A stretch of DNA of 64,000 nucleotides from a virus, in the IMG/VR virus record IMGVR_UViG_3300030397_000812, positions 286 through 64,285 of that record, one strand, 5' to 3'. Below, in pieces: positions 4,044 through 60,168 of this stretch. The translations under genes were made by a program, and so were the position numbers. The number at the start of each line of letters is the position of its first letter. Position 1 is the first letter of the stretch. The notes below the pieces were generated by a model that was not told the DNA's origin, did no database searches, and saw nothing but the letters and a program-made list of their open reading frames with translations.

Positions 4044-4358
4044 ATGGACACACAAATCACAAGAGAAAACTTTTGGTTCAAGCTGGCAGAGTGCTGGGAG
4101 AAACGAGCCAACAAGAAAGGGTTGAAATTCAGAGAAGATTTTGATGAATACCTAGATGGCGAACATCCGAATGCACCTTACTTGAGGGCTGAGCTAGAAT
4201 TCTATCTGGGAGCGTTTAATGCCGCTTGCGTTTTCGCTGGGAAATTCCCGATTCAAGACGAGCATATGAGCGATCTTGATCCAGTGGTTTTATTCTCAGG
4301 AATGAGGGGTGACAGCATCACGAAAACGTTTTTGGAACTCAAATCTAAGAAAGGATGA
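4044..4358 (+). CDS. Hypothetical protein
   Basis: ATG after an A-rich leader downstream of the tRNA-like element; overlaps next gene (ATGA). Confidence 0.7.
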   Translation: MDTQITRENFWFKLAECWEKRANKKGLKFREDFDEYLDGEHPNAPYLRAELEFYLGAFNAACVFAGKFPIQDEHMSDLDPVVLFSGMRGDSITKTFLELKSKKG

Positions 4359-4864
4359 AAAGGTACAACTTAGAAACTGGATGCATGGGTGCTTTATACC
4401 CGTCTACGGACAACATATATTCTGTCATTGATAATGTTGAAGCCATGTTTCCTTGGATTTTGAAGGACTTCAATAGGCATAGGAAGCACTGGAGGGTTCA
4501 TATTATATGTAAGGGAAGCTCAGGATTGATGCGAGCCACTTTCTTAGCTGAAAGATTTTACAAGGAAAATATAGATGTTTCCATATCTTTTGATAACAGA
4601 GGCGCGCATTCTGTAGCCCATGATGAACATGCCGGATCATGGATGTTTGATGATAGCTATTATCAATTAATCGTAGATGATTTCTGCTGCTCATGTAGAA
4701 CCATGCGAAAAATCGCTAGCTACATAAATGAATCGTGCGAAGACCCAGTGACAATTAATGCGATAGTTGTTAATTCAGGAGCGAGAATGATTGAGGAGCA
4801 CATCTTCGACATTCTTAATGAAAAACCCAACTTGAAAATAAAGAAAATTGTAAACGTACAGTAA
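4355..4864 (+). CDS. Phosphoribosyltransferase-fold protein (divergent)
   Basis: IICKGSSGLMRATFLAE and LIVDDFCCSCRTM resemble type I PRTase motifs (hhhhDDhhxTGxT). Confidence 0.55.
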   Translation: MKRYNLETGCMGALYPSTDNIYSVIDNVEAMFPWILKDFNRHRKHWRVHIICKGSSGLMRATFLAERFYKENIDVSISFDNRGAHSVAHDEHAGSWMFDDSYYQLIVDDFCCSCRTMRKIASYINESCEDPVTINAIVVNSGARMIEEHIFDILNEKPNLKIKKIVNVQ

Positions 4865-5155: not shown

Positions 5156-5641
5156 ATGGAAAATAAAAAGGTAAAGATGGTCTGCTCTCAATGTGGGAGC
5201 GGCGATGTTAAGAAGGACGCATACGCAGTTTGGGATGCTGTTACTCAGCAATGGGAGGCATGCGCTGTATTCGACAAAGGCGATGTGTGCGAATCGTGCT
5301 GTGGCGAAACAACAATCAAGGAGGTTGCCTACGATCCTGAAGATGTGAATTATACTGTCTTTGGTTCGCATGGAGAGATTACCATTGACAAGATTGGGTA
5401 TGTCATTGAGATCAGCCACGATCTTCAGGCAGATTCCGGTGAAGAAAGAGAGTACATCGGTATTGAAAGATTCGATGTTATTGAGTACGAGATGTTCTTG
5501 AAATCCAAGGGATTTGAAATGCCTGAGCATGGCATCGACATCCTCGACATTTCGTACTGGCAAAACGGTGAGTTTGTGAAATTTGAGCAATCTCACCGAG
5601 ATGAAATTATTTTAGCTTGGAAAGAAAGCAGGAAATCATGA
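5156..5641 (+). CDS. Hypothetical protein with N-terminal Zn-ribbon
   Basis: CSQCGS...CESCCG motifs, acidic C-terminal half. Confidence 0.7.
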   Translation: MENKKVKMVCSQCGSGDVKKDAYAVWDAVTQQWEACAVFDKGDVCESCCGETTIKEVAYDPEDVNYTVFGSHGEITIDKIGYVIEISHDLQADSGEEREYIGIERFDVIEYEMFLKSKGFEMPEHGIDILDISYWQNGEFVKFEQSHRDEIILAWKESRKS

Positions 5642-5826
5642 GGGAATTACATGAGCCAATTTTTCAAATTGGAGAAAGGGTAAAATACATCGGGGTTAAT
5701 TCACCATATGGTGAATCGGTAATTGAAGATATAGACATTAAGAAAGATCACCTCTTGTCACTACGGCGAGATCATGAAGGAGATTTACACAAAAGCAAGG
5801 AAAAAACTAAACGAAGAAAATCATGA
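5638..5826 (+). CDS. Small SH3/KOW-like hypothetical protein
   Basis: FQIGERVKYIG motif; ATGA overlaps at both ends; internal SPYGESVIEDIDIKK resembles the shared C-terminal tag. Confidence 0.55.
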   Translation: MRELHEPIFQIGERVKYIGVNSPYGESVIEDIDIKKDHLLSLRRDHEGDLHKSKEKTKRRKS

Positions 5827-6691: not shown

Positions 6692-6890
6692 ATTTGCAAA
6701 CGGGTGGTATGACGGGAAATTCTTTGTGAACTCAGTTCTAGTTGGCAGGGTTAGTTCTGAATTCACTCCGAAAGGAAATTTCAAAGCCACCTTTATCGAC
6801 ATGGGAATGGAATATCATGAGTATTCCGACACGTACACTGGGGCTAAAACTTTAATTGAAGAAAAATGGGCATCACAAGAGGGGAAATAA
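6684..6890 (+). CDS. Hypothetical protein
   Basis: ATG overlapping upstream stop. Confidence 0.65.
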   Translation: MNKFANGWYDGKFFVNSVLVGRVSSEFTPKGNFKATFIDMGMEYHEYSDTYTGAKTLIEEKWASQEGK

Positions 6891-7729
6891 AATCCAAATG
6901 GATCAAGGATTTGTTTGATAAAAACAATGAGTCCAGTACTTTGAGTGACAGTAATTCCATTGGGGATTCCTTCATATGGAAAAACACTGATGAGGGGTGG
7001 AAATTTTGGGATTTAGTAAGTGGGGGTAGGGAGTCTGAGGCGATCGAATTCTATGAGAAAAACATCGGACCAATACCGGATGAGGGTGATGACATCCCAA
7101 ATATCCTAAATATTGGAGACAGGGTTCAAATAATGAGCGGATGGGACGATCCAACTGTTCCTGATTCTCTACAAGTCGGATGTATTGGATATGTAAACAA
7201 GAGGGCAAATATACCTGATTGTTTCATTATAGAGGATCAGGATGGGGATCGAACGCACATATTCCACAAGAGGTTCTTGAAGAAGACAAAGAAAACCAGG
7301 AAAACGATTGACAATTCCCTAATGTTTGAGGTCGGGGAATATTTCTCTATGCTTAGACCAAGTACAAATGGTCACCTGAACACTGGGGATATTGTTAAGA
7401 TCGTTTCAATTGATCCTCCACCAGAGCTTCATACCAAAGACCAGTGGCTTCCTTATTTCGTCGAGCGAGTTATGGACGGTAAATCTAGCGTTCAGGATTG
7501 GGTCAGAGAGCACTGGTTGAAACCGGAAATGGAATTCAATGCAATAGATCAATATAATAGGGCTGGAAACGTTGTCCTACATCACTCCATAAAGAAAAAT
7601 CCACTCACTAAAGATGAGTGTTTCGTTAAGGAAAGTGGTTCGACTTGCGTGGTGGATTTGAAAGCACTCGAAAAACCAAACCCATATAACGAAACCGATC
7701 TCAAAGAACTTGATCTTAAAAAGGTATAG
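6866..7729 (+). CDS. SH3/KOW-like repeat protein with shared C-terminal tag
   Basis: LNIGDRVQI and FEVGEYF/LNTGDIVKIV modules; ends NPYNETDLKELDLKKV*. Confidence 0.75.
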   Translation: MGITRGEIKSKWIKDLFDKNNESSTLSDSNSIGDSFIWKNTDEGWKFWDLVSGGRESEAIEFYEKNIGPIPDEGDDIPNILNIGDRVQIMSGWDDPTVPDSLQVGCIGYVNKRANIPDCFIIEDQDGDRTHIFHKRFLKKTKKTRKTIDNSLMFEVGEYFSMLRPSTNGHLNTGDIVKIVSIDPPPELHTKDQWLPYFVERVMDGKSSVQDWVREHWLKPEMEFNAIDQYNRAGNVVLHHSIKKNPLTKDECFVKESGSTCVVDLKALEKPNPYNETDLKELDLKKV

Positions 7730-7732
7730 TCA

Positions 7733-8053
7733 ATGGCTGCTCTTTTATCTGATAAAATTCTTGGCGCGCAGATAGATTATGGCGTGAGTGACTTCAGCGG
7801 AGTTTCTTTGTTCGGTAGACGTGCGGGAAAGAGCGTTGTGGGGCAAATTACTAGAGATTATCTGGAGAGCAATGATTATTATTTATCGGAGCTGAAAAGG
7901 ATTCAATCAGAGATGAGGATTCTCAGGAAAACATCCTCAAAACCCGAGGAAACATCAATGTCAATGAAAGAGATACCAGACATCTTAAGGAAAGAGAAAA
8001 CAAACAAGTACCGAGACACTGATTTAAAGGAATTTGAAATTGAAAAGATTTGA
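7733..8053 (+). CDS. Hypothetical protein with shared C-terminal tag
   Basis: Ends NKYRDTDLKEFEIEKI*. Confidence 0.75.
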   Translation: MAALLSDKILGAQIDYGVSDFSGVSLFGRRAGKSVVGQITRDYLESNDYYLSELKRIQSEMRILRKTSSKPEETSMSMKEIPDILRKEKTNKYRDTDLKEFEIEKI

Positions 8054-8056
8054 ACC

Positions 8057-8383
8057 ATGGAATATTTTATAGGTGATCGGATTGAGATTGTGGAGAAAGG
8101 GATATGTAGTATTCCAGTGGGCAGCAAAGGCACCGTCATAAACCATTCAGATATTGAAGAGGAGTTATCCAATGGGTACACGGATAGTCACGACAGATTC
8201 CTATTAGCGATAAGAATGGATGAGAAATATCCTTCCGTTCTTGAGTGGAAGGATTACAACATTTACCTGAAACTAACGAGGCAAATGCTTTACGCTATTA
8301 GGAGTATAGATAAAAACACTGATGGTTCCAATAATGCATACAAAAGAGCTGAAATAAAAGACTTGAACATTAAAAAGATTTAA
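8057..8383 (+). CDS. SH3/KOW-like protein with shared C-terminal tag
   Basis: YFIGDRIEIV...GSKGTV; ends NAYKRAEIKDLNIKKI*. Confidence 0.75.
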   Translation: MEYFIGDRIEIVEKGICSIPVGSKGTVINHSDIEEELSNGYTDSHDRFLLAIRMDEKYPSVLEWKDYNIYLKLTRQMLYAIRSIDKNTDGSNNAYKRAEIKDLNIKKI

Positions 8384-8395
8384 TCAATAAAGACT

Positions 8396-8764
8396 ATGGC
8401 AGATTCTGCACCTAAAGGTTGGCTTCAAACCGTCCTCGCTGCACTACAAGGTGGTGACGAGGGAAAATTGAAGCGTCTTCAAAAGAAGGCAATCAAACAA
8501 TTGGAAGATTCTAAGCTTGCTAACAATCGAGAGATCGAGGAGAAGCGAGAGCGAATTGCTGATTTGCGAGAATCACTTTCCGACACTGTTTCATCCCCTG
8601 ATGTTGAACAGATCAAAACCACTGAAGCTGCGAAATCATACGCTCGTTCGTATGTGAGTAGCCTCAAGGAAATTCTGGGAAATATCAAGGATGTAGAGAA
8701 CGGCATAGAACACCTCGAAGAGGAGAATGCCGTCTACGAAGAGGTTCTTGAGCTTCTCCAGTAG
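8396..8764 (+). CDS. Helical coiled-coil protein resembling a family seen in Bacteroidota phages
   Basis: All-helical heptad pattern; WLQTVLAALQGGDEG N-terminus; family link from memory only. Confidence 0.75.
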   Translation: MADSAPKGWLQTVLAALQGGDEGKLKRLQKKAIKQLEDSKLANNREIEEKRERIADLRESLSDTVSSPDVEQIKTTEAAKSYARSYVSSLKEILGNIKDVENGIEHLEEENAVYEEVLELLQ

Positions 8765-8814
8765 GGAGTATCGGGAATGTAAATTCCAAAAAGGGGGCGA
8801 CATGCCCCCAATAA

Positions 8815-8879
8815 GCCGGAGTAGCTCAGTTGGTAGAGCGCATATTGAGGTCGGGGGTTCGAATCCCTCTTCCGGCTCA
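8815..8879 (+). ncRNA. tRNA-like RNA with the anticodon arm deleted
   Basis: GCCGGAG/TTCCGGC acceptor; TA; GCTC-AGTTGGTA-GAGC D-arm; G; only CATATTG (7 nt instead of 17); AGGTC; GGGGG-TTCGAAT-CCCTC T-arm; T-CA. Confidence 0.85.
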
Positions 8880-8897
8880 ACATTAAATTCTAAAGAC

Positions 8898-9218
8898 ATG
8901 AGCAGACCAAGATATTACATCACGAAGAATGCAGATAGAACATCCTCTGCTATTACAGACAAAGAAACGTTTAGCACAGACGTTTTATCTGAAGCCGTCG
9001 GGGTGGTCCATGCCAGGGGCGGAACTATTATTTGGGACGATCAGGAGATGAAGTTCTTTAAGATCAAGTCTGGTCAGGGAGCGGGCACTTCTTCCCAAAA
9101 GAAAATGTACGCCAATCTTGTTGCGCAGGAGTTGCGAGACATTCTCAAGCACAACAATGGAAGATTTGATCCACTGTACATTAGCGGAGAGAATGTGTGG
9201 AGTGGCGGCGTCTACTAA
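8898..9218 (+). CDS. Hypothetical protein
   Basis: ATG at 8898 (track start 8727 runs through the tRNA-like element and is unlikely). Confidence 0.65.
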   Translation: MSRPRYYITKNADRTSSAITDKETFSTDVLSEAVGVVHARGGTIIWDDQEMKFFKIKSGQGAGTSSQKKMYANLVAQELRDILKHNNGRFDPLYISGENVWSGGVY

Positions 9219-9774
9219 AAAAGAAGAATCCCTCCCCTTTAAGGTTGGTGATTACGTTGTTCATCGAGAACGCACCCATCATCACGGAGTGATTGACTCA
9301 ATAACAGAAGATCCTGAAGGAAATTTGTTGGTCAGGGCTTACCCCTTGAAAGGAACGGGTGGATTGTTGCATCATTTCAGGAATGATTGTGTAAAAAAAC
9401 TAGTCAAAGTCGGGTTTCCAAAATACAGAGTAGGGGAATGGTTTCGCGGACAGATATCTGGAGTGAGGCATGTTGTGAAAGAAATATTCAGGTACAATTT
9501 TCAATACAATACATGGGAGTACGCAACCAATATGGCTCCAAGAGGATGTCCAATTAGGGAGTGTAATGTAGCTCAATGTGAGTCACCAGAACTAAAGTCT
9601 CCCGATCCATCTCCAGTAAAAGCAGATACATATATTTATGATGGTAAAAAAATATCTGAATCCGATTTTGCCGTTGTATTTGCTTCATCAAGAACTTTGA
9701 TTGAAAAAGAACAAGGTAAAAAGAACAAGTACCGAGACGCTGATATCAAGGATTTGGATATTAAAAAGATATGA
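9118..9774 (+). CDS. Tandem SH3/KOW-like protein with shared C-terminal tag
   Basis: FKVGDYVVH and YRVGEWFR modules; ends NKYRDADIKDLDIKKI*; start uncertain. Confidence 0.7.
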   Translation: MLRRSCETFSSTTMEDLIHCTLAERMCGVAASTKKEESLPFKVGDYVVHRERTHHHGVIDSITEDPEGNLLVRAYPLKGTGGLLHHFRNDCVKKLVKVGFPKYRVGEWFRGQISGVRHVVKEIFRYNFQYNTWEYATNMAPRGCPIRECNVAQCESPELKSPDPSPVKADTYIYDGKKISESDFAVVFASSRTLIEKEQGKKNKYRDADIKDLDIKKI

Positions 9775-9807: not shown

Positions 9808-9861
9808 ACAAATGAGATTTGTTTAAGCTCAAACGGGCGGTAACAAATGAGATTTGTTTAA
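9808..9861. repeat. 19-bp direct repeat pair with internal dyad (operator-like)
   Basis: ACAAATGAGATTTGTTTAA at 9808-9826 and 9843-9861; dyad ACAAAT-GAG-ATTTGT; intergenic. Confidence 0.85.
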
Positions 9862-9894
9862 CGGGTTGAATCTGGAATTTTACCGGTGGTCGAA

Positions 9895-10041
9895 CGCAAA
9901 CCAACGGAACAGAGCCCGCACCATAGGCTAGTCAAGCGGCGCCCCGCGTCATCTCCCTGTTGACGGACCATATGCTTGATAGTGCTGAGACAGTCGCAGA
10001 TTCGTAATGAGGCATTTAACGACTGATGGGCGGGTATTGCG
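9895..10041 (+). ncRNA. Putative ~150-nt structured ncRNA
   Basis: CGCAA/TTGCG closing; GCCCGC-ACCA/TGG-GCGGGT; CTAGTCAAGC/GCTTGATAG; CCGCGTCA/TGACGG; CAGTCG/CGACTG; followed by TTTTT. Confidence 0.6.
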
Positions 10042-15887: not shown

Positions 15888-15969
15888 ATCGACCTTTGTT
15901 TACATCGGACACGACAGTCACTACGCGTGGGACAGGTGCACTAAATGCGGTGAGTTGCAAAAACAATGA
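15772..15969 (+). CDS. Small coiled-coil/Zn-ribbon hypothetical protein
   Basis: C..H...HDSH...CTKCG; coupled to recombinase start. Confidence 0.6.
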   Translation: MNIDEIEKQEKELKERLSHLGKIKSSLQALCDHLDEKGESTFVYIGHDSHYAWDRCTKCGELQKQ

Positions 15970-17210
15970 AGCCAGGACTTTACTTTTCCCTAGAGGATGG
16001 CGTAGTCTACGCAAGGGTTAAGATCAATGGTACCACAAAGAAGTTCAGCACCAGAATTAAGATCGATGACAAGAGGAACTTCAAACACGGCGGCGTTATG
16101 CCTAGGGATATGTACACCCGGTCCGCTGATCAAAATCTGAGAGACTTACGAGACAAGTTCGATCGAATAAAAATAGAGCCCTATCATACCGCCGTGATGA
16201 TTCGGGATATGCTTCGGGACGAATACATTGAGGGTCAGAATGAATTCACCCTAATGAACGCCATGGAGCACGGTCTTTCTCTTTCTAAGTTGACGGTTGT
16301 TGAGAACACATATAATCAGTATGTTGTGGAAGTGGAGAGTTTTCGGAAATGGTTTAAATACCACACTGGGTATGAGGATGTAGCTCTCAGTGGAATCACC
16401 AATAAAATAGGAGTTTCCTTTGTTGAATCTTGTATTCAGGATAATCAAAAGACTGGGACCATAAAGCGCAAATTATCCATCCTTGGTAAATTCTACGATG
16501 ATTATGTCCTAGACTACCAGGATGAAGTTGCAGCTCCTCAAAATCCATTCTCCACCGCAACACGACTCGTCAGTCGAATGAAGTCTAAGGTGAAGAAAGA
16601 GAGTAGCAAGGAGTTTATCATGAAGTACTGGCACCAAGAAGAGGAGGTCAAGCAGATTCGTGAATTCAAATTCATGGGATCCAAGAAACACAAATATGAA
16701 AGATATAGGTGGGCAGCTATGTGGCAGATTGTTACCGGATGGTCTTTTGATGATATGGGGTCCGATGATTGGGAGATTAAAGAATTGGACGGGAAAAGAT
16801 ACATTAAGATTATAAGGGGTAAGACGCTGAATCCTTGCTATATTCCATTTTCTGAAGAGATTGAATTTGTTCGCAAAAAGCTAAAGGAGAACTGCTTGGG
16901 GGGAAGATTATTTCCATTCAAAAGATTCATCAAGAATGGGAAAACAAATCTCAAACTAAAAGACAGTGAGTACGGTAAATACACTAGGTTCTTAGCTAAG
17001 TTTACTAGAATGTTGGGTTTCGATGAAATGAGAACCCATAAATTCAGACATACATTTGGTATGACCATGTCTAAGCGAGGGTACACCACAAACCAGATCG
17101 CCAAAATGATGGGTCACGCCAACCCAGCCACCACAGAAGGATTCTATGTGACGGAGACTGAAGAACAAATAGTTAGTGAAATGCTTGCAATTAAACCCAA
17201 TTCCAAGTAA
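15966..17210 (+). CDS. int: Tyrosine recombinase (Bacteroidota IntDOT-like)
   Basis: N-terminal arm-binding-like and SAM-like regions; TGWS (Arg-I replaced by Ser), RGKT, HKFRHTF, MMGH, catalytic Tyr in TEGFY. Confidence 0.9.
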   Translation: MKPGLYFSLEDGVVYARVKINGTTKKFSTRIKIDDKRNFKHGGVMPRDMYTRSADQNLRDLRDKFDRIKIEPYHTAVMIRDMLRDEYIEGQNEFTLMNAMEHGLSLSKLTVVENTYNQYVVEVESFRKWFKYHTGYEDVALSGITNKIGVSFVESCIQDNQKTGTIKRKLSILGKFYDDYVLDYQDEVAAPQNPFSTATRLVSRMKSKVKKESSKEFIMKYWHQEEEVKQIREFKFMGSKKHKYERYRWAAMWQIVTGWSFDDMGSDDWEIKELDGKRYIKIIRGKTLNPCYIPFSEEIEFVRKKLKENCLGGRLFPFKRFIKNGKTNLKLKDSEYGKYTRFLAKFTRMLGFDEMRTHKFRHTFGMTMSKRGYTTNQIAKMMGHANPATTEGFYVTETEEQIVSEMLAIKPNSK

Positions 17211-19338: not shown

Positions 19339-20061
19339 ATGTCTTTTGGACAGAATGAAGGGGGCACCCTATTATATGTATCGGTTGTTGCTGGCAAGTT
19401 TGCCTCAAAACTTCCAAACATTTCAGACGCTTACGAGGACGGTGACGTAAACGGGAAACTAAAACCTAATCACCGAGTCAGGATGAACAAGAATAGTGAG
19501 CAAGTTGCTGAGTTCACCTTTGATTCAGCCGATGGGATGATCGATCGGTTTGAAACTCGTGAGAGCGATTTCGGAACGCAAATTTCGATCAGCCTGAAAT
19601 TTGAAGACGGGACTATTGTGGTCATCTCCACCAATGCGTTTAACGACGACGGAGATACGCTCACATCTATCGCTTCATCTATCGGGGACCAGATTGGTCT
19701 TGTTGACTTCAACAAAGAACTGAAGATTGGTCTTTCGAAAAGAGATGGTAAGGTTCGTGGAATTTCTTTTGAGCAAGATGGCGTGTACATCCCTAGTACA
19801 AAGGAAAATGAAGCGTTCAAGGAGCACATCTCCCAGAGACCACAAGCCACGAAGAAAAATGGTCTGCAAGGTGAGAAATGGGATTTCTCCGCCCCATCGG
19901 AATGGCAATGGGGTCAGATCCAAGCAGCACTCGACAGATTTACTTCTGAAAGGACCAGCGGTGATCAAGCCACTTCTGGTTCTGGTTCCGACTCAGAGAA
20001 AGGGATCGAGTTCCCTAATATCGACGATGAATCGGATAAGAAAGACGATCTGCCGTTTTAA
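19339..20061 (+). CDS. Putative single-stranded DNA-binding protein
   Basis: Beta-rich core, disordered acidic tail ending DDLPF; lies between exonuclease and primase-helicase. Confidence 0.7.
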   Translation: MSFGQNEGGTLLYVSVVAGKFASKLPNISDAYEDGDVNGKLKPNHRVRMNKNSEQVAEFTFDSADGMIDRFETRESDFGTQISISLKFEDGTIVVISTNAFNDDGDTLTSIASSIGDQIGLVDFNKELKIGLSKRDGKVRGISFEQDGVYIPSTKENEAFKEHISQRPQATKKNGLQGEKWDFSAPSEWQWGQIQAALDRFTSERTSGDQATSGSGSDSEKGIEFPNIDDESDKKDDLPF

Positions 20062-20139: not shown

Positions 20140-20535
20140 ATGACATACGCTGAGAAATTGATAGACGAAAATCCTGTGTGGGATGACTTAAGCAAAGAGG
20201 AGCGGCTCATTGTTTTGTACATGATCGTCAAAACAAATGCTGCCGGGGTCTTTTATTTCTCGGAAAAGAAGACTAATTTCGTCACGGGATTAGATGACTC
20301 ATCAAAGTTATTAGACTCCATAGAGAATCATGGATTAGTCATTCAAGATAAGGGCACTAGAGAGGTTTGGTTCAAGGATTACATGAAGGTCCACAACCCC
20401 ATCATCGGAACAGGGAACTTCATTAAGAAATTCAAATATGACAGTAATGAAATCAAAAGCGAGAACATTAAAGGGAGAATGAGGGAGCTTTGGAAGGAAT
20501 TATCAGAAGCTAAAAAGAAAACCAATGGAGAGTAA
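20140..20535 (+). CDS. Winged-helix-like replication accessory/initiator candidate
   Basis: WDDLSKEERLIVLYMIVKTNAAG...FVTGL resembles N-terminal wHTH of phage replisome organisers; directly precedes primase-helicase. Confidence 0.5.
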   Translation: MTYAEKLIDENPVWDDLSKEERLIVLYMIVKTNAAGVFYFSEKKTNFVTGLDDSSKLLDSIENHGLVIQDKGTREVWFKDYMKVHNPIIGTGNFIKKFKYDSNEIKSENIKGRMRELWKELSEAKKKTNGE

Positions 20536-22546
20536 GGGATTCGAAAATAATCGATCCAGAGTTGCTCCAAATTGTCCTTGCGGAAAAAGCAACAAGGACG
20601 GAAAATTCGCCCCATTCAAGGGGGAAACTAAATATGGGAAATGTCATTCATGCTCTGATGTATTTTTTCCTCCATCAGATGACAGCAACGCTCCAATAAC
20701 CAACGCTAAACAGCAGTATGTAGATCCTAAAATTGTTGAGCAGTCTCAGGAAATTGTTCATAACGACCCTTTTTTTAAGTACTTTGAAGGAGTTGTTGGT
20801 GATTCAGAAAAGGCTCAAGCTCACCTAAAGTCCATGGGTGTTGGCTCCAGAAATGGATTCACCACTTTCTGGATGATCGATCAGCACGGTAGGGTATGCC
20901 TTCCGAAGGGGATCAAGTACAATGAAGACGGGACCAGGGTTCAAGATCACAATACTGGTGTTGCGAGAGAGAAGGAATTTAATGGGAAAAACGCTTATTA
21001 CCCATCCCTTTTCAATGGATCTTCTATAGATAAGGGACTACCCATTGTTGTTGTCGAATCCGAGAAGAGTGCAGCCATGGCTCAGTACTTCTTTCCAGAG
21101 TACACCTGGGTGTCTCCTGGCGGCGCCACTGCGCTAGATTACGATAAAGCCCTACCACTCAGAGGAAGGGATGTAATCCTTTTGTACGACGCCGATAAAG
21201 CCGGAAGGGAGGGTGCAATAAAAGCTTTCAGTCTACTTACTGAAAAGCTGGAGTGTAACGTTAAAGATTTAGAGCTAACTCCCGACAGGACAGATGGTTA
21301 TGACATAGCCGACATCATAAACGATTTCTCCGGAAATGAAGATGTTATGGCTCAAGTTTCTGAGAAACTGAGTGAGGCTGAAAAGAAATTATCTCCAGAT
21401 AAACGCCCAGAAGTCATCCGAATGAGCAAGGAAAGGCTCAAGGAAAATAGACGTTCAGGTAAAAAACATAAGGGTGAAACAACACACTTTCATGAATTGG
21501 ACCCAAATTTCCTATGGAAGAAAAGGAATGTTTACACGTTCACTGGATTGCCGGGTGCCGGTAAATCTGAGGTCACGTTATTTCTATCGTTCCTGAAAGC
21601 AAAGTTCTCAAATTGGAAATTTATACTGTTTGTCCCTGAATCACTATCATCAAATGACGAGGGAGAATGGACTGATGAGGTTATTGTCGATCGACTAGCC
21701 CATACTTACTGGGGCATAACGTCAGATATCGAGCACATTCCGAACATGACTGATGCCCAATACGATGAGGCAATAGACTGGGTCCATGAGCACTTTACGA
21801 TAATCATGCCGGACACGCTTCTCGCTAAGCAGTATGATGTTATAAGAGTTGCCGAGGAAGTGAATGAGGAATTCGGGAAGCATGATGCAATTATTGTGGA
21901 CCCATTCAACACGCTTGATGTCCCCCAAAGAAAAGATGAATTACTTGATCAGGCGAATCGTCGGACTATTTACGAAGCTAAGAACTGGACGGTCCGAAAC
22001 AACATGGCGTGGATCTACGTCACGCATCCTGGCAAGCCGATGCGGACTAAGGATGGTGGAGTCATCAAACCAACACTATACGATATACGTGGGGGAATGG
22101 GGTTCGTCAATGGTTCGGACGTCGGCGTCATAATACATAGACCTTATTACAATTTACCAATGGCTCCGTGGAAAGAGGGGGAGATCCCAGGCACCCAGCA
22201 CCCATTGGTTGAATTTACAGTCGCGAAACTTAAGGAGAAGTTCGCTTTAGGAGCTGAGGAGGGAACCGTGGAGATATTCTTTCACAAGAAGACGAATAGG
22301 TATCAGAACTCGTACGGATTATCTCCGCTTGACGATGCGTACAGGAGTAATTACACCCCGGGGAAAGACAACTACGGGAGACTTCCTGAAGCCCCTATTA
22401 CAGAAGAGATTGTATTAGGCGATGAGAGAAGTTTGATTCCGATAAAAAACATTCAAGGTTCCTTGGAATTTAAGAAAGATGAGGGTAAGTTTGAGGACCA
22501 AGACGTCGAAAGTCTTTTAGATGAGGATGATGATCCTCCATTTTAA
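20525..22546 (+). CDS. Primase-helicase (Zn-ribbon + TOPRIM + RecA-like helicase)
   Basis: CPCG...CHSC; VVESEKSA and YDADKAG TOPRIM motifs; Walker A TGLPGAGKS; IIVDPFN; VTHP; acidic DDDPPF tail. Confidence 0.9.
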   Translation: MESKGFENNRSRVAPNCPCGKSNKDGKFAPFKGETKYGKCHSCSDVFFPPSDDSNAPITNAKQQYVDPKIVEQSQEIVHNDPFFKYFEGVVGDSEKAQAHLKSMGVGSRNGFTTFWMIDQHGRVCLPKGIKYNEDGTRVQDHNTGVAREKEFNGKNAYYPSLFNGSSIDKGLPIVVVESEKSAAMAQYFFPEYTWVSPGGATALDYDKALPLRGRDVILLYDADKAGREGAIKAFSLLTEKLECNVKDLELTPDRTDGYDIADIINDFSGNEDVMAQVSEKLSEAEKKLSPDKRPEVIRMSKERLKENRRSGKKHKGETTHFHELDPNFLWKKRNVYTFTGLPGAGKSEVTLFLSFLKAKFSNWKFILFVPESLSSNDEGEWTDEVIVDRLAHTYWGITSDIEHIPNMTDAQYDEAIDWVHEHFTIIMPDTLLAKQYDVIRVAEEVNEEFGKHDAIIVDPFNTLDVPQRKDELLDQANRRTIYEAKNWTVRNNMAWIYVTHPGKPMRTKDGGVIKPTLYDIRGGMGFVNGSDVGVIIHRPYYNLPMAPWKEGEIPGTQHPLVEFTVAKLKEKFALGAEEGTVEIFFHKKTNRYQNSYGLSPLDDAYRSNYTPGKDNYGRLPEAPITEEIVLGDERSLIPIKNIQGSLEFKKDEGKFEDQDVESLLDEDDDPPF

Positions 22547-57672: not shown

Positions 57673-60168
57673 TCACAAATGCTTTGAAATCACGTTCCTT
57701 ACGTGATTTCTCCTTCTATCGTCCTTATCTAAGTGATCTGGCTTCTTTTGGAACTTTTTACCAAGCCTGTTTGCAATAAGTATTGCCCACCCGGAACCCA
57801 TGGCAGCATCAAAAGCAGTAGAATCCTCAAGTGAAAATTGATTCCAGTCGTCAAGGAGATTTGGGAACACTACGTTTTCCACGTAGTTGGCAATATAGTC
57901 CTCTGTAGTCTCGGCAAGAGACTGCTTGTTTTTTGGAGACCCGGCAATACCGTCTTTTCCATCCACTTTTTGAATGAATCCGGTGTAACCATTTCGCTCA
58001 AAATAAGAGATAGCTCCAGGTTTGTTGTTCTCAATGATTGCTGGGGTGCCGAAGAAGACGCATTGCTTCAATAGATCCTCAGCCATCAAATCTGCGGAAG
58101 GTTGCCGGTAGATATACTCGCACAAAAACGTGTTGTCAAACTCTTCGTTCATCGGGTCGTGCCGCTGAAGAGTGTAGAAGGCTGCATTGGAAGCTTGCTG
58201 CTCGTCCTTCAGATTCTTCCGGCTGTGATCGAATGTGTCTGCGCCGGTAAGAGAGGTGTTGTTGGATATTGGTCTATAAACCTCCCCGATCTTCTCCCAG
58301 TTATTTATTAAACCGGATTCCGGCTCCATGGCTTTCTCCAGCCATTTAGCATGAATTAGCCACTTACCATTAAAGTTTTCCTTGAATTCCACGTCAGACC
58401 CAATACCATCAATCCAGTGAAGATTCCCCCTCACAAACCACTCTTTCTCTTCTTTTGTTGCTAGGAGTTTCATTTGATTCACTAGCTTCAGGGAATCATA
58501 AATACACTCGTCATTTATGCTATAAAACGCCTCGTCGATCGTCCATGGGTTTTTCCTGATGTACTCAGCTAGTTGTTTCGGCGACGAAGCTAGAGCGTTT
58601 CTCTCTTTCTGCATTGCGTCTTTAGCGGCAACACTGTCGCAAATTCCGTATTTATCAATGAAGTCAGCGTCGTTCTTGTGAGCTGGAGTGAATAAGCGGT
58701 ACAATCCAGATCTGGTTCGAAAAGTATCCGGGTCTTTTTCCTGAAAACCGGAATCATTCCATAGTCTTTTGAAAGGAACAGACCCCCCCTCCTCAATCGT
58801 TGTGGTGTATAGGGCTTTGCCGACAATAGTCCGGGTACCCACTTTCAAGCACTCTTTCACAACGCCCCATCCAACATGAATGTCGGCAAGAAGAGTTTTT
58901 CCGCAATTATGCACAATCAACCCACTAGCCAGCCTGATCCTTTGGTTGCCCTCGGTTTTAATTGAGAAGTACTTTCCGTTTCCAACCTCCTCAACGGAAA
59001 AACAATCAACATCACTGGACTCACCAAAAAACATAACCAGATGTTTTTGCTGGCTTTTAGTAAGGGATAGGTATTCATTAACCGGCATCTCAATAATCTC
59101 TCCAAAAGATTTTCCCTTAAATTTCTGATCCCTGCGAGCCCATTTCATTACAAGTATGTGGTCTCCATTACATGTCCATGAATTTGACTTATTCATTTTG
59201 ATCCGATACATTTTATCTTCTCCGGAATGGACATGAGAAACCCTTCTTGGAGTTCCGTCATCACCCATTAAATAATCGCCAACTTCAATATCTTTTGCCG
59301 ATATAGAGAATCCATCGCTCTTTAGCAACTCCACCTCACCGCCAAAACACTCATCTCTCAGGTACCTGATTTGCCTAGTCCCGTCCGGAGCTAAGATCTC
59401 ATATGACTCGAAGTTTATCTCGCTACCCAGCTCGACGTCTGGAGATTCGTAATCAGCAGCTCTCGATGATTTCTCCTGGAAAATCAATTTGTTTTTCGGG
59501 CGAGTACCCCCGGAGGTGTCAAATAGTGGAACGAAGAAATCAGGTAAAGACTTGAATCCATTTATCAGTTTTGAAAAAACTTTGGCGGCGTCCGGTTTAG
59601 TTTTAGATTGTATGGTGGAGAACATGTCGGTGCCGAGCGTTCTGGATGGGAATTCGTAATGAACTATCGTTGATCGAAAAGTCTTCCCGGATCGTCTACG
59701 AGCGGCTTCAATTAAACCAAACGAATCAGGGTCCCCTTCACAATAGGACCAGCAGTAAAAAAACTGCCTATCGGAATCCCGGTAATGAGGATAACCAATG
59801 TCAATTCTCCACCATGTCAGGTAAATGTAGTGTGTGCCGGTTATGAACGTAGGTTTCCCATTATTCATGAACCAGAATCCGTTCATTCGGCGAAACCACT
59901 CCCTCTCCCTAAAAGCCTCTAGCTCGGCGTCCACGTACAGTGGATTTCTTTTCTGCTTTTCCCTCTCCTGTTTTCGAAGACGGTTATAATCGATATTGAT
60001 AGGTCTCTCCCAATACTGGTCCTCCTTAATCTCAGACCTTTGATAAATTTCGGTTGTGATCCATTTCCCCTCTAGGAAATCCCATACCATTCCAACCGGA
60101 GGGACGTTTACCGTCATCTCATAAACCTCCTCTTTCGTTCCTTTCTCGTGTTCGTAAAAGCAAATCAT
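57673..60168 (-). CDS. terL: Terminase large subunit (intein-containing)
   Basis: Walker A RRRSGKT, Walker B YLRDE, nuclease GADTFD and DAAMGSG. Confidence 0.93.
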   Translation of the reverse strand: MICFYEHEKGTKEEVYEMTVNVPPVGMVWDFLEGKWITTEIYQRSEIKEDQYWERPINIDYNRLRKQEREKQKRNPLYVDAELEAFREREWFRRMNGFWFMNNGKPTFITGTHYIYLTWWRIDIGYPHYRDSDRQFFYCWSYCEGDPDSFGLIEAARRRSGKTFRSTIVHYEFPSRTLGTDMFSTIQSKTKPDAAKVFSKLINGFKSLPDFFVPLFDTSGGTRPKNKLIFQEKSSRAADYESPDVELGSEINFESYEILAPDGTRQIRYLRDECFGGEVELLKSDGFSISAKDIEVGDYLMGDDGTPRRVSHVHSGEDKMYRIKMNKSNSWTCNGDHILVMKWARRDQKFKGKSFGEIIEMPVNEYLSLTKSQQKHLVMFFGESSDVDCFSVEEVGNGKYFSIKTEGNQRIRLASGLIVHNCGKTLLADIHVGWGVVKECLKVGTRTIVGKALYTTTIEEGGSVPFKRLWNDSGFQEKDPDTFRTRSGLYRLFTPAHKNDADFIDKYGICDSVAAKDAMQKERNALASSPKQLAEYIRKNPWTIDEAFYSINDECIYDSLKLVNQMKLLATKEEKEWFVRGNLHWIDGIGSDVEFKENFNGKWLIHAKWLEKAMEPESGLINNWEKIGEVYRPISNNTSLTGADTFDHSRKNLKDEQQASNAAFYTLQRHDPMNEEFDNTFLCEYIYRQPSADLMAEDLLKQCVFFGTPAIIENNKPGAISYFERNGYTGFIQKVDGKDGIAGSPKNKQSLAETTEDYIANYVENVVFPNLLDDWNQFSLEDSTAFDAAMGSGWAILIANRLGKKFQKKPDHLDKDDRRRNHVRNVISKHL
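58906..59349 (-). mobile_element. Mini-intein (148 aa) in TerL
   Basis: Starts C-FGGEV after DE; block B TCNGDHIL; ends VHN followed by Cys+1 (CGKT); no endonuclease domain. Confidence 0.92.

Follow-up and report, generated by a model that had tools for sequence, protein, structure and literature searches.

The 64,000-nucleotide (nt) window analysed here (positions 286 to 64,285 of the IMG/VR record IMGVR_UViG_3300030397_000812) is nearly the entire 65,594-bp single-contig record of an uncultured phage. Four plus-strand open reading frames (ORFs) in it, called genes A to D below, end in the same 16-residue tail with the consensus N-x-Y-x3-[DE]-[IL]-K-[DE]-[LF]-x-[IL]-x-K-[IV]-stop. The distance to the stop codon is identical in all four. 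The tail is a real short linear motif, far beyond chance, and it is maintained by selection on the peptide. The four genes are as follows; the barrel-start motifs in their bodies are discussed further below.

Gene A, 6866..7729, plus strand: orphan of 287 aa, with barrel-start motifs at 7106-7126 and 7325-7345; tail at 7679-7729, NPYNETDLKELDLKKV, then stop.
Gene B, 7733..8053, plus strand: orphan of 106 aa, without a barrel-start motif; tail at 8003-8053, NKYRDTDLKEFEIEKI, then stop.
Gene C, 8057..8383, plus strand: orphan of 108 aa, with a barrel-start motif at 8063-8083; tail at 8333-8383, NAYKRAEIKDLNIKKI, then stop.
Gene D, 9193..9774, plus strand: orphan of 193 aa, with barrel-start motifs at 9238-9258 and 9424-9444; tail at 9724-9774, NKYRDADIKDLDIKKI, then stop. 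The start at 9193 is the public-data call, and 9157 and 9118 are alternative starts.

The four peptides had been pointed out in a first-pass annotation made from the letters of the window, and their positions, register and distance to the stop matched that description exactly. A back-translated IUPAC pattern of the tail had four matches in the window against 0.00 expected (100 shuffles). A hidden Markov model (HMM) built from the tails and run against the six-frame translation of the genome found only these four (E 4e-11 to 1.4e-10), and the next match was at E 0.8. When the C-terminal 16-mers of 88 ORFs were compared all against all (3,828 pairs), the six pairs of tails scored 37-60 and the next real pair scored 25, the baseline being a score of 22 at the 99.99th percentile of random internal 16-mer pairs.

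Residues N1, Y3, K9 and K15 of the tail are invariant, positions 7 and 10 are acidic, and positions 8, 11, 13 and 16 are hydrophobic, which gives the spacing Φ-x-x-Φ-x-Φ-x-x-Φ-COOH (Φ, hydrophobic residue). The tails end in K-K-[IV] or E-K-I and hold 4-5 basic and 2-6 acidic residues, with a net charge of -1 to +3. Their hydrophobic moment is maximal at 140 degrees, away from both 100 and 160-180 degrees. A plain amphipathic helix therefore does not fit the tail, nor does a regular strand; the spacing of its residues resembles that of groove-binding peptides. The C-terminal beta-strand addition proposed in the first-pass annotation gained no support, either from the hydrophobic moment or from AlphaFold2 (AF2) models, which were unusable. 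The 6-10 residues in front of each of the four tails have a hydrophobic fraction of 0-0.2, so that the tail follows a hydrophilic linker in every carrier. Formally, the tail also contains Y-x-x-x-[DE], as in type VII secretion signals, but this candidate was rejected because the pattern is low in information and inconsistent with a Bacteroidota-type phage.

Selection operates on the peptide and not on the DNA or RNA. Among the 16 codon columns of the four tails, the second position is invariant in 13, the first in six and the third in only three. In the pairs A-B, A-C, A-D and C-D the proportion of synonymous differences (pS) is 0.64-0.92, which is saturated, against a nonsynonymous proportion (pN) of 0.21-0.31. 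The 60-nt flanks of the tails share no nucleotide similarity. The observed codon and nucleotide identities were compared with those of synonymous codons sampled according to the codon usage of this phage, and for five of the six pairs both identities were those expected from the peptides alone. Since third positions are free and five pairs lie at the synonymous expectation, conservation resides in the peptide, as had been proposed from the divergence of the codons. A nucleic-acid element would be the alternative, either a translation-initiation region of the next gene, a regulator site or a recombination boundary, with the peptide incidental to it. The tails of A and B do stop 3 nt, and that of C 12 nt, before the next start codon, and the AAA AAG codons place A-runs at about -11 to -15 of the B and C starts. 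However, the tail of D is followed by 250 nt without a gene, and neither the flanks nor the third positions behave as such an element would require. We regard this explanation as highly improbable, and a promoter, operator, translation-initiation element or recombination boundary as the cause of the repeat is largely excluded by the codon comparison. A -1 frameshift on T-AAA-AAG was also considered and rejected, as it gives no meaningful product.

The sixth pair, B-D, is related at the DNA level, which is the one point in the codon comparison that a nucleic-acid element could claim. Here nine of the ten identical residues use the same codon, where 4.6 would be expected (P=0.005), and the nucleotides agree at 40 of 48 positions (P=0.0009). 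The two tails share 15 identical nt (8003-8017 = 9724-9738), in agreement with the first-pass annotation, whereas the bodies of B and D are unalignable. The excess of DNA identity in the tails of two unalignable bodies therefore points to a tail that was recently exchanged or converted between B and D as a module. Local recombination or gene conversion of this kind has moved the tail at least once.

Whether the carriers are related is a separate question, and the answer differs between them. With the tails removed, the carriers and their neighbours gave no match better than E=0.087 in blastp against a 15-sequence database, and searching Pfam, PHROGs and PDB with the carrier sequences returned nothing above threshold. 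A second short motif is nevertheless present. The pattern [FYILV]-x-[IV]-G-[DE]-[RYWK]-[VIF], of the form Φ-x-[IV]-G-[DE]-x-Φ and defined post hoc after inspection of the data, has six copies in the proteome of 20,669 residues, two in A, one in C, two in D and one in a further upstream ORF. The expectation is 0.22 copies, and none of 2,000 shuffles reached six (P<0.0005). A motif of this kind is the usual first strand of small SH3/KOW/Tudor-like barrels. The upstream ORF is:

ORF 5617..5826, plus strand: 69 aa, with a barrel-start motif at 5662-5682; a borderline look-alike of the tail lies inside it at 5698-5748, NSPYGESVIEDIDIKKD.

Genes A, C and D are probably diverged paralogs because they hold this second motif, which is confined to them and to ORF 5617-5826. 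Together the four probably form a very diverged local family with one or two small putative SH3-like barrels each, whereas B appears to be a true outsider, an unrelated body with the same tail. The description of the carriers as unrelated thus stands for B, whose body is unlike the others, and needs to be qualified for A, C and D. The SH3/KOW-like modules attributed to three of the carriers are weakly supported by the enrichment of the barrel-start motif, and not by any firm domain or structure match. Pfam SH3_12 matched C (ORF 8057) at E 3e-4 with 21.1 bits, below the cutoff of 26.2. Structural neighbours in the ESM Atlas came from the KOW, SH3 and CarD-RID families with TM-scores of 0.3-0.35, and single-sequence AF2 models of C and D had predicted local distance difference test (pLDDT) values of 47 and 33. 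The putative modules of A, C and D open with the Φ-x-Φ-G-D-x-V strand typical of SH3_12, KOW, Tudor-like and CarD_TRCF_RID barrels, families in which their weak structural neighbours lie. They differ from these in having no match at a curated threshold, a TM-score of 0.35 or lower and low-confidence models, and the tail lies outside these domains.

One rival explanation is that the carriers arose by tandem duplication of a barrel-plus-tail gene and that their bodies drifted, with the tail packing on its own barrel or zipping paralogs together and with no separate reader. This would account for the occurrence of all six barrel-start motifs in A, C, D and ORF 5617-5826 and for the adjacency of the genes. 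A, B, C and the untagged gene at 8396-8764 also lie in one reading frame, with spacers of 3, 3 and 12 nt and single stops TAG, TGA and TAA between them. By chance, about one such arrangement in 27 would share a frame; in-frame splitting or duplication could have produced it, but the shared frame proves nothing. Read-through of these in-frame stops was rejected, as it would require suppression of all three. On the other side, the modules show no similarity beyond the seven-residue motif (mean z about 0), B has the tail but no barrel motif, and the architectures vary, with one or two barrels and extra N- or C-terminal segments. The tail also lies about 20-60 residues beyond the putative barrels, separated from them by the hydrophilic linker. 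Homology along the whole length, with the tail as the last strand of a shared fold, had been named in the first-pass annotation as the finding that would speak against it; we checked for this and did not see it. Because of the distance past the barrels, the differing lengths and architectures of the bodies and blastp E values above 0.08, the tail does not appear to be the last strand of a detectably shared fold. We consider it fairly unlikely that the tail is just an oligomerisation or structural element of such a paralog family, with no separate reader.

The look-alike in ORF 5617-5826 bears on the same question. From P-Y onward it can be aligned to the A tail without gaps, yet a further 26 residues come after it, and it sits inside the putative barrel of this ORF, a point in favour of the paralog explanation. 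Its gapless score on a position-specific scoring matrix (PSSM) is 123, against 115 at the 95th and 128 at the 99th percentile of shuffled-proteome maxima (P about 0.02). A gapped regular expression, written post hoc, gave P=0.0005, and the HMM gave E about 2. This borderline internal copy makes a strict restriction of the motif to C-termini less certain.

Searches beyond this genome recovered neither relatives of the four proteins nor further copies of the tail. Homolog searches with A, C and D returned the query alone, and in a set of about 15 billion proteins each of the four forms a singleton cluster; a second contig also carries B, C and D. Locus searches in IMG/VR with D, A and the SNF2 helicase of this phage found nothing, and the region had no blastn match among GenBank phages. 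A strict back-translated tail pattern had no hits in IMG/VR. The 10-residue core plus stop had six loci there, which were put down to chance because the matches were out of frame or not terminal. Without the stop, the full pattern had five matches in JGI metagenomes, which we also regard as chance, since none was terminal and the DNA was 17-28% GC; two of them were internal in CoaX-like proteins. A profile of the last 30 residues, run against 1.84 billion representative proteins, found the four carriers and repeat proteins that matched non-tag columns only. A 75-kb relative (see below) has neither this tail nor an analogous multi-gene tail, and the first 40 kb of Cellulophaga phage phi38:1 likewise hold no analogous multi-gene tail and only one full-length paralog pair. 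The scan for C-terminal enrichment across Bacteroidota phage proteomes that the first-pass annotation had proposed was therefore empty, and the motif is private to this phage genome or lineage.

In phage T4, the otherwise unrelated proteins gp43, gp55 and gp33 have similar short C-terminal tails behind divergent, probably unstructured linkers, and all bind one hub, gp45 (PMC2988020). This is similar to the tails described here, where hydrophilic linkers and a tail exchanged between B and D likewise give an interchangeable C-terminal peptide on unalignable bodies. The sequences differ, as the gp45-binding tails of T4 are hydrophobic and acidic, whereas the present tails have K and D/E charges over 16 residues and invariant N, Y, K and K. 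A phage clamp as reader, as in T4, is also not found, since there is none among the products scanned. By analogy with T4, we tentatively favour the view, at somewhat less than even confidence, that the tail is a common docking handle, read with its free C-terminus by one phage or host partner. The hydrophilic linker would present the tail at the free C-terminus of orphan proteins of the early region, and one reader would recognise N-x-Y ... Φ-x-x-Φ-x-Φ-x-x-Φ-COOH on all four. All four proteins might in this way be recruited or handled jointly, which is the part that the clamp gp45 plays towards the tails of gp43, gp55 and gp33. The early timing of the tagged genes is inferred from their genome position only, and the untagged gene at 8396-8764 is a candidate partner by position only.

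A further argument for docking comes from the phage itself, which uses the principle of a shared docking tail elsewhere. Its SSB-like protein (19339-20061) ends in ...DDLPF and its primase-helicase (20525-22546) in ...DDPPF, and in the 75-kb relative (G001 58224-58952 and 64244-66226) the same pair ends in ...DLPF and ...DIPF. These endings are classical SSB-tip-like docking tails on two replication proteins, comparable to those of T7 gp2.5 and gp4. The tip of SSB (D-D-D-I-P-F) and the acidic, F-terminated tails of T7 gp2.5 and gp4 resemble the 16-residue tail in being C-terminal peptides that are common to different proteins and read as a free end. The tail of genes A to D is nevertheless of unrelated sequence, is not acidic and has no [IL]-P-F or terminal aromatic residue, and its carriers are orphans and not replication proteins. 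Beta-clamp-binding motifs (QL[SD]LF or QLxLxL) are also short, often C-terminal and have hydrophobic residues spaced L-x-L, but the present tail lacks Gln, as well as a Phe or Leu in register at its end, and does not conform to them. Nor does it conform to PDZ C-terminal ligands of classes I-III, which have [ST], Φ or [DE] at -2, since all four tails have Lys there. The sorting domain of type IX secretion is a C-terminal beta-sandwich domain of 70-100 residues, whereas the carriers have no Pfam match to it and only 16 residues are conserved. Shared C-terminal handles are thus already known as a kind, and this motif is new.

A C-terminal degron or timer would also read a free end. Here a host or phage protease or adaptor would remove or protect the early proteins together. 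Known degrons such as ssrA act via a free C-terminal peptide after a flexible linker, and the fixed distance to the free C-terminus, the hydrophobic last residue and the flexible linker ahead of the tail are all in keeping with this. The tail is, however, unlike both ssrA-type -LAA endings and the non-polar substrates of Prc. Its charge content is high, its 16 residues exceed the length of typical degrons, and no protease gene was found among the products scanned. We therefore think a degron improbable. A signal for localisation or virion loading, which would send the carriers to a site in the cell or into the cargo space of the capsid or virion tail, is in our view more doubtful still. Terminal targeting peptides do occur in phages, of which the T4 capsid-targeting sequence is an example, but the tagged genes lie in the leftmost plus-strand block, far from the minus-strand structural genes, and no structural protein bears the tail.

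Several points weigh against the docking handle. If the look-alike at 5698-5748 is real, which is borderline, then the motif is not strictly C-terminal and a free C-terminus is not strictly required. The second motif shared by three of the carriers means that common descent, and not modular tagging, probably explains most copies. Over the 16 codons dN/dS is about 0.9 for B-D and about 0.7 for B-C. The motif is also confined to a single genome, and the AF2 models of C and D were unusable.

Six genes lie between 6866 and 9774, and four of them bear the tail. The other features of the cluster are:

8396..8764, plus strand: untagged acidic gene of 122 aa inside the cluster, probably coiled-coil.
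8815..8877, plus strand: tRNA-like gene of 63 nt between tagged genes, Rfam tRNA 50.4 bits.
8898..9218, plus strand: untagged orphan of 106 aa, overlapping the start of gene D.

The tRNA-like gene has acceptor, D and T arms but no anticodon arm, and ARAGORN makes no call; the arm-less tRNA noted inside the cluster in the first reading of the sequence is therefore present. A hairpin lies just upstream of it at 8793-8809. Inside the orphan at 8898-9218, positions 9046-9069 match the DNA of the gene A tail (7697-7716) in reverse complement, on the opposite strand, at 18/20 nt, with the antisense peptide DLKEL. The match may be fortuitous or the remnant of an inverted copy. After gene D, the 250-nt gap holds two perfect 19-nt direct repeats, 9808-9826 and 9843-9861, ACAAATGAGATTTGTTTAA, each with the palindrome ACAAAT/ATTTGT, and a GC-rich stretch follows at 9880-9970. 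The repeat region looks like an operator or a terminator.

Upstream of the cluster, ORF 6314-6691 matches phrog_1540 (E 2e-21) and is the sole adjoining gene with relatives. Its homologs occur in Caulobacter phiCbK-like, Rhizobium, Pseudomonas and Microbacterium phages and have no assigned function. Further upstream, 4355-4864 shows a weak resemblance to phosphoribosyltransferases (Pfam Pribosyltran, E 1e-4, below cutoff), and phi38:1 likewise has a putative phosphoribosyltransferase gene beside its region of small, putatively early genes. The plus strand carries small and replication-type genes up to about 24.7 kb, and the structural module lies beyond on the minus strand. Pfam scans of the replication block found an SNF2 helicase, a DnaA-C-like helix-turn-helix protein, a tyrosine integrase, a PDDEXK nuclease and a Toprim primase-helicase; there was no polymerase or sliding clamp among the products scanned, which covered part of the ORFs. 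The virion module is crAss/phi38:1-like, and the tyrosine integrase (15966-17210, Phage_integrase, E 3e-12) suggests that the phage is temperate. Its portal protein shares only some 25% identity with the portals of Cellulophaga phages phi38:1 and phi40:1 and of the Flavobacterium 'elemo' podophages, and the phage therefore appears to be of Bacteroidota type without close cultured relatives. A single relative was recovered via TerL (44% identity), the 75-kb complete contig mentioned above, and its common content with this phage is structural genes only.

The value of the motif is limited in that it is private to one uncultured phage. Even so, for phage orphans without homologs there are few routes to a common pathway, and a shared terminal peptide is one of them. 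The tail might be an address label of a new sequence class, with one reader, either a host hub or the product of 8396-8764, gripping the free C-termini and jointly deploying host-takeover factors, and with a label that local recombination can transplant, as between B and D; we think this extended proposal possible, if rather unlikely. The exchange between B and D is a small, clean example of a functional peptide transplanted between unrelated genes in one genome. As the tail ties together four of the six genes of the cluster, and perhaps ORF 5617-5826 too, one peptide could reveal the target of the early block.

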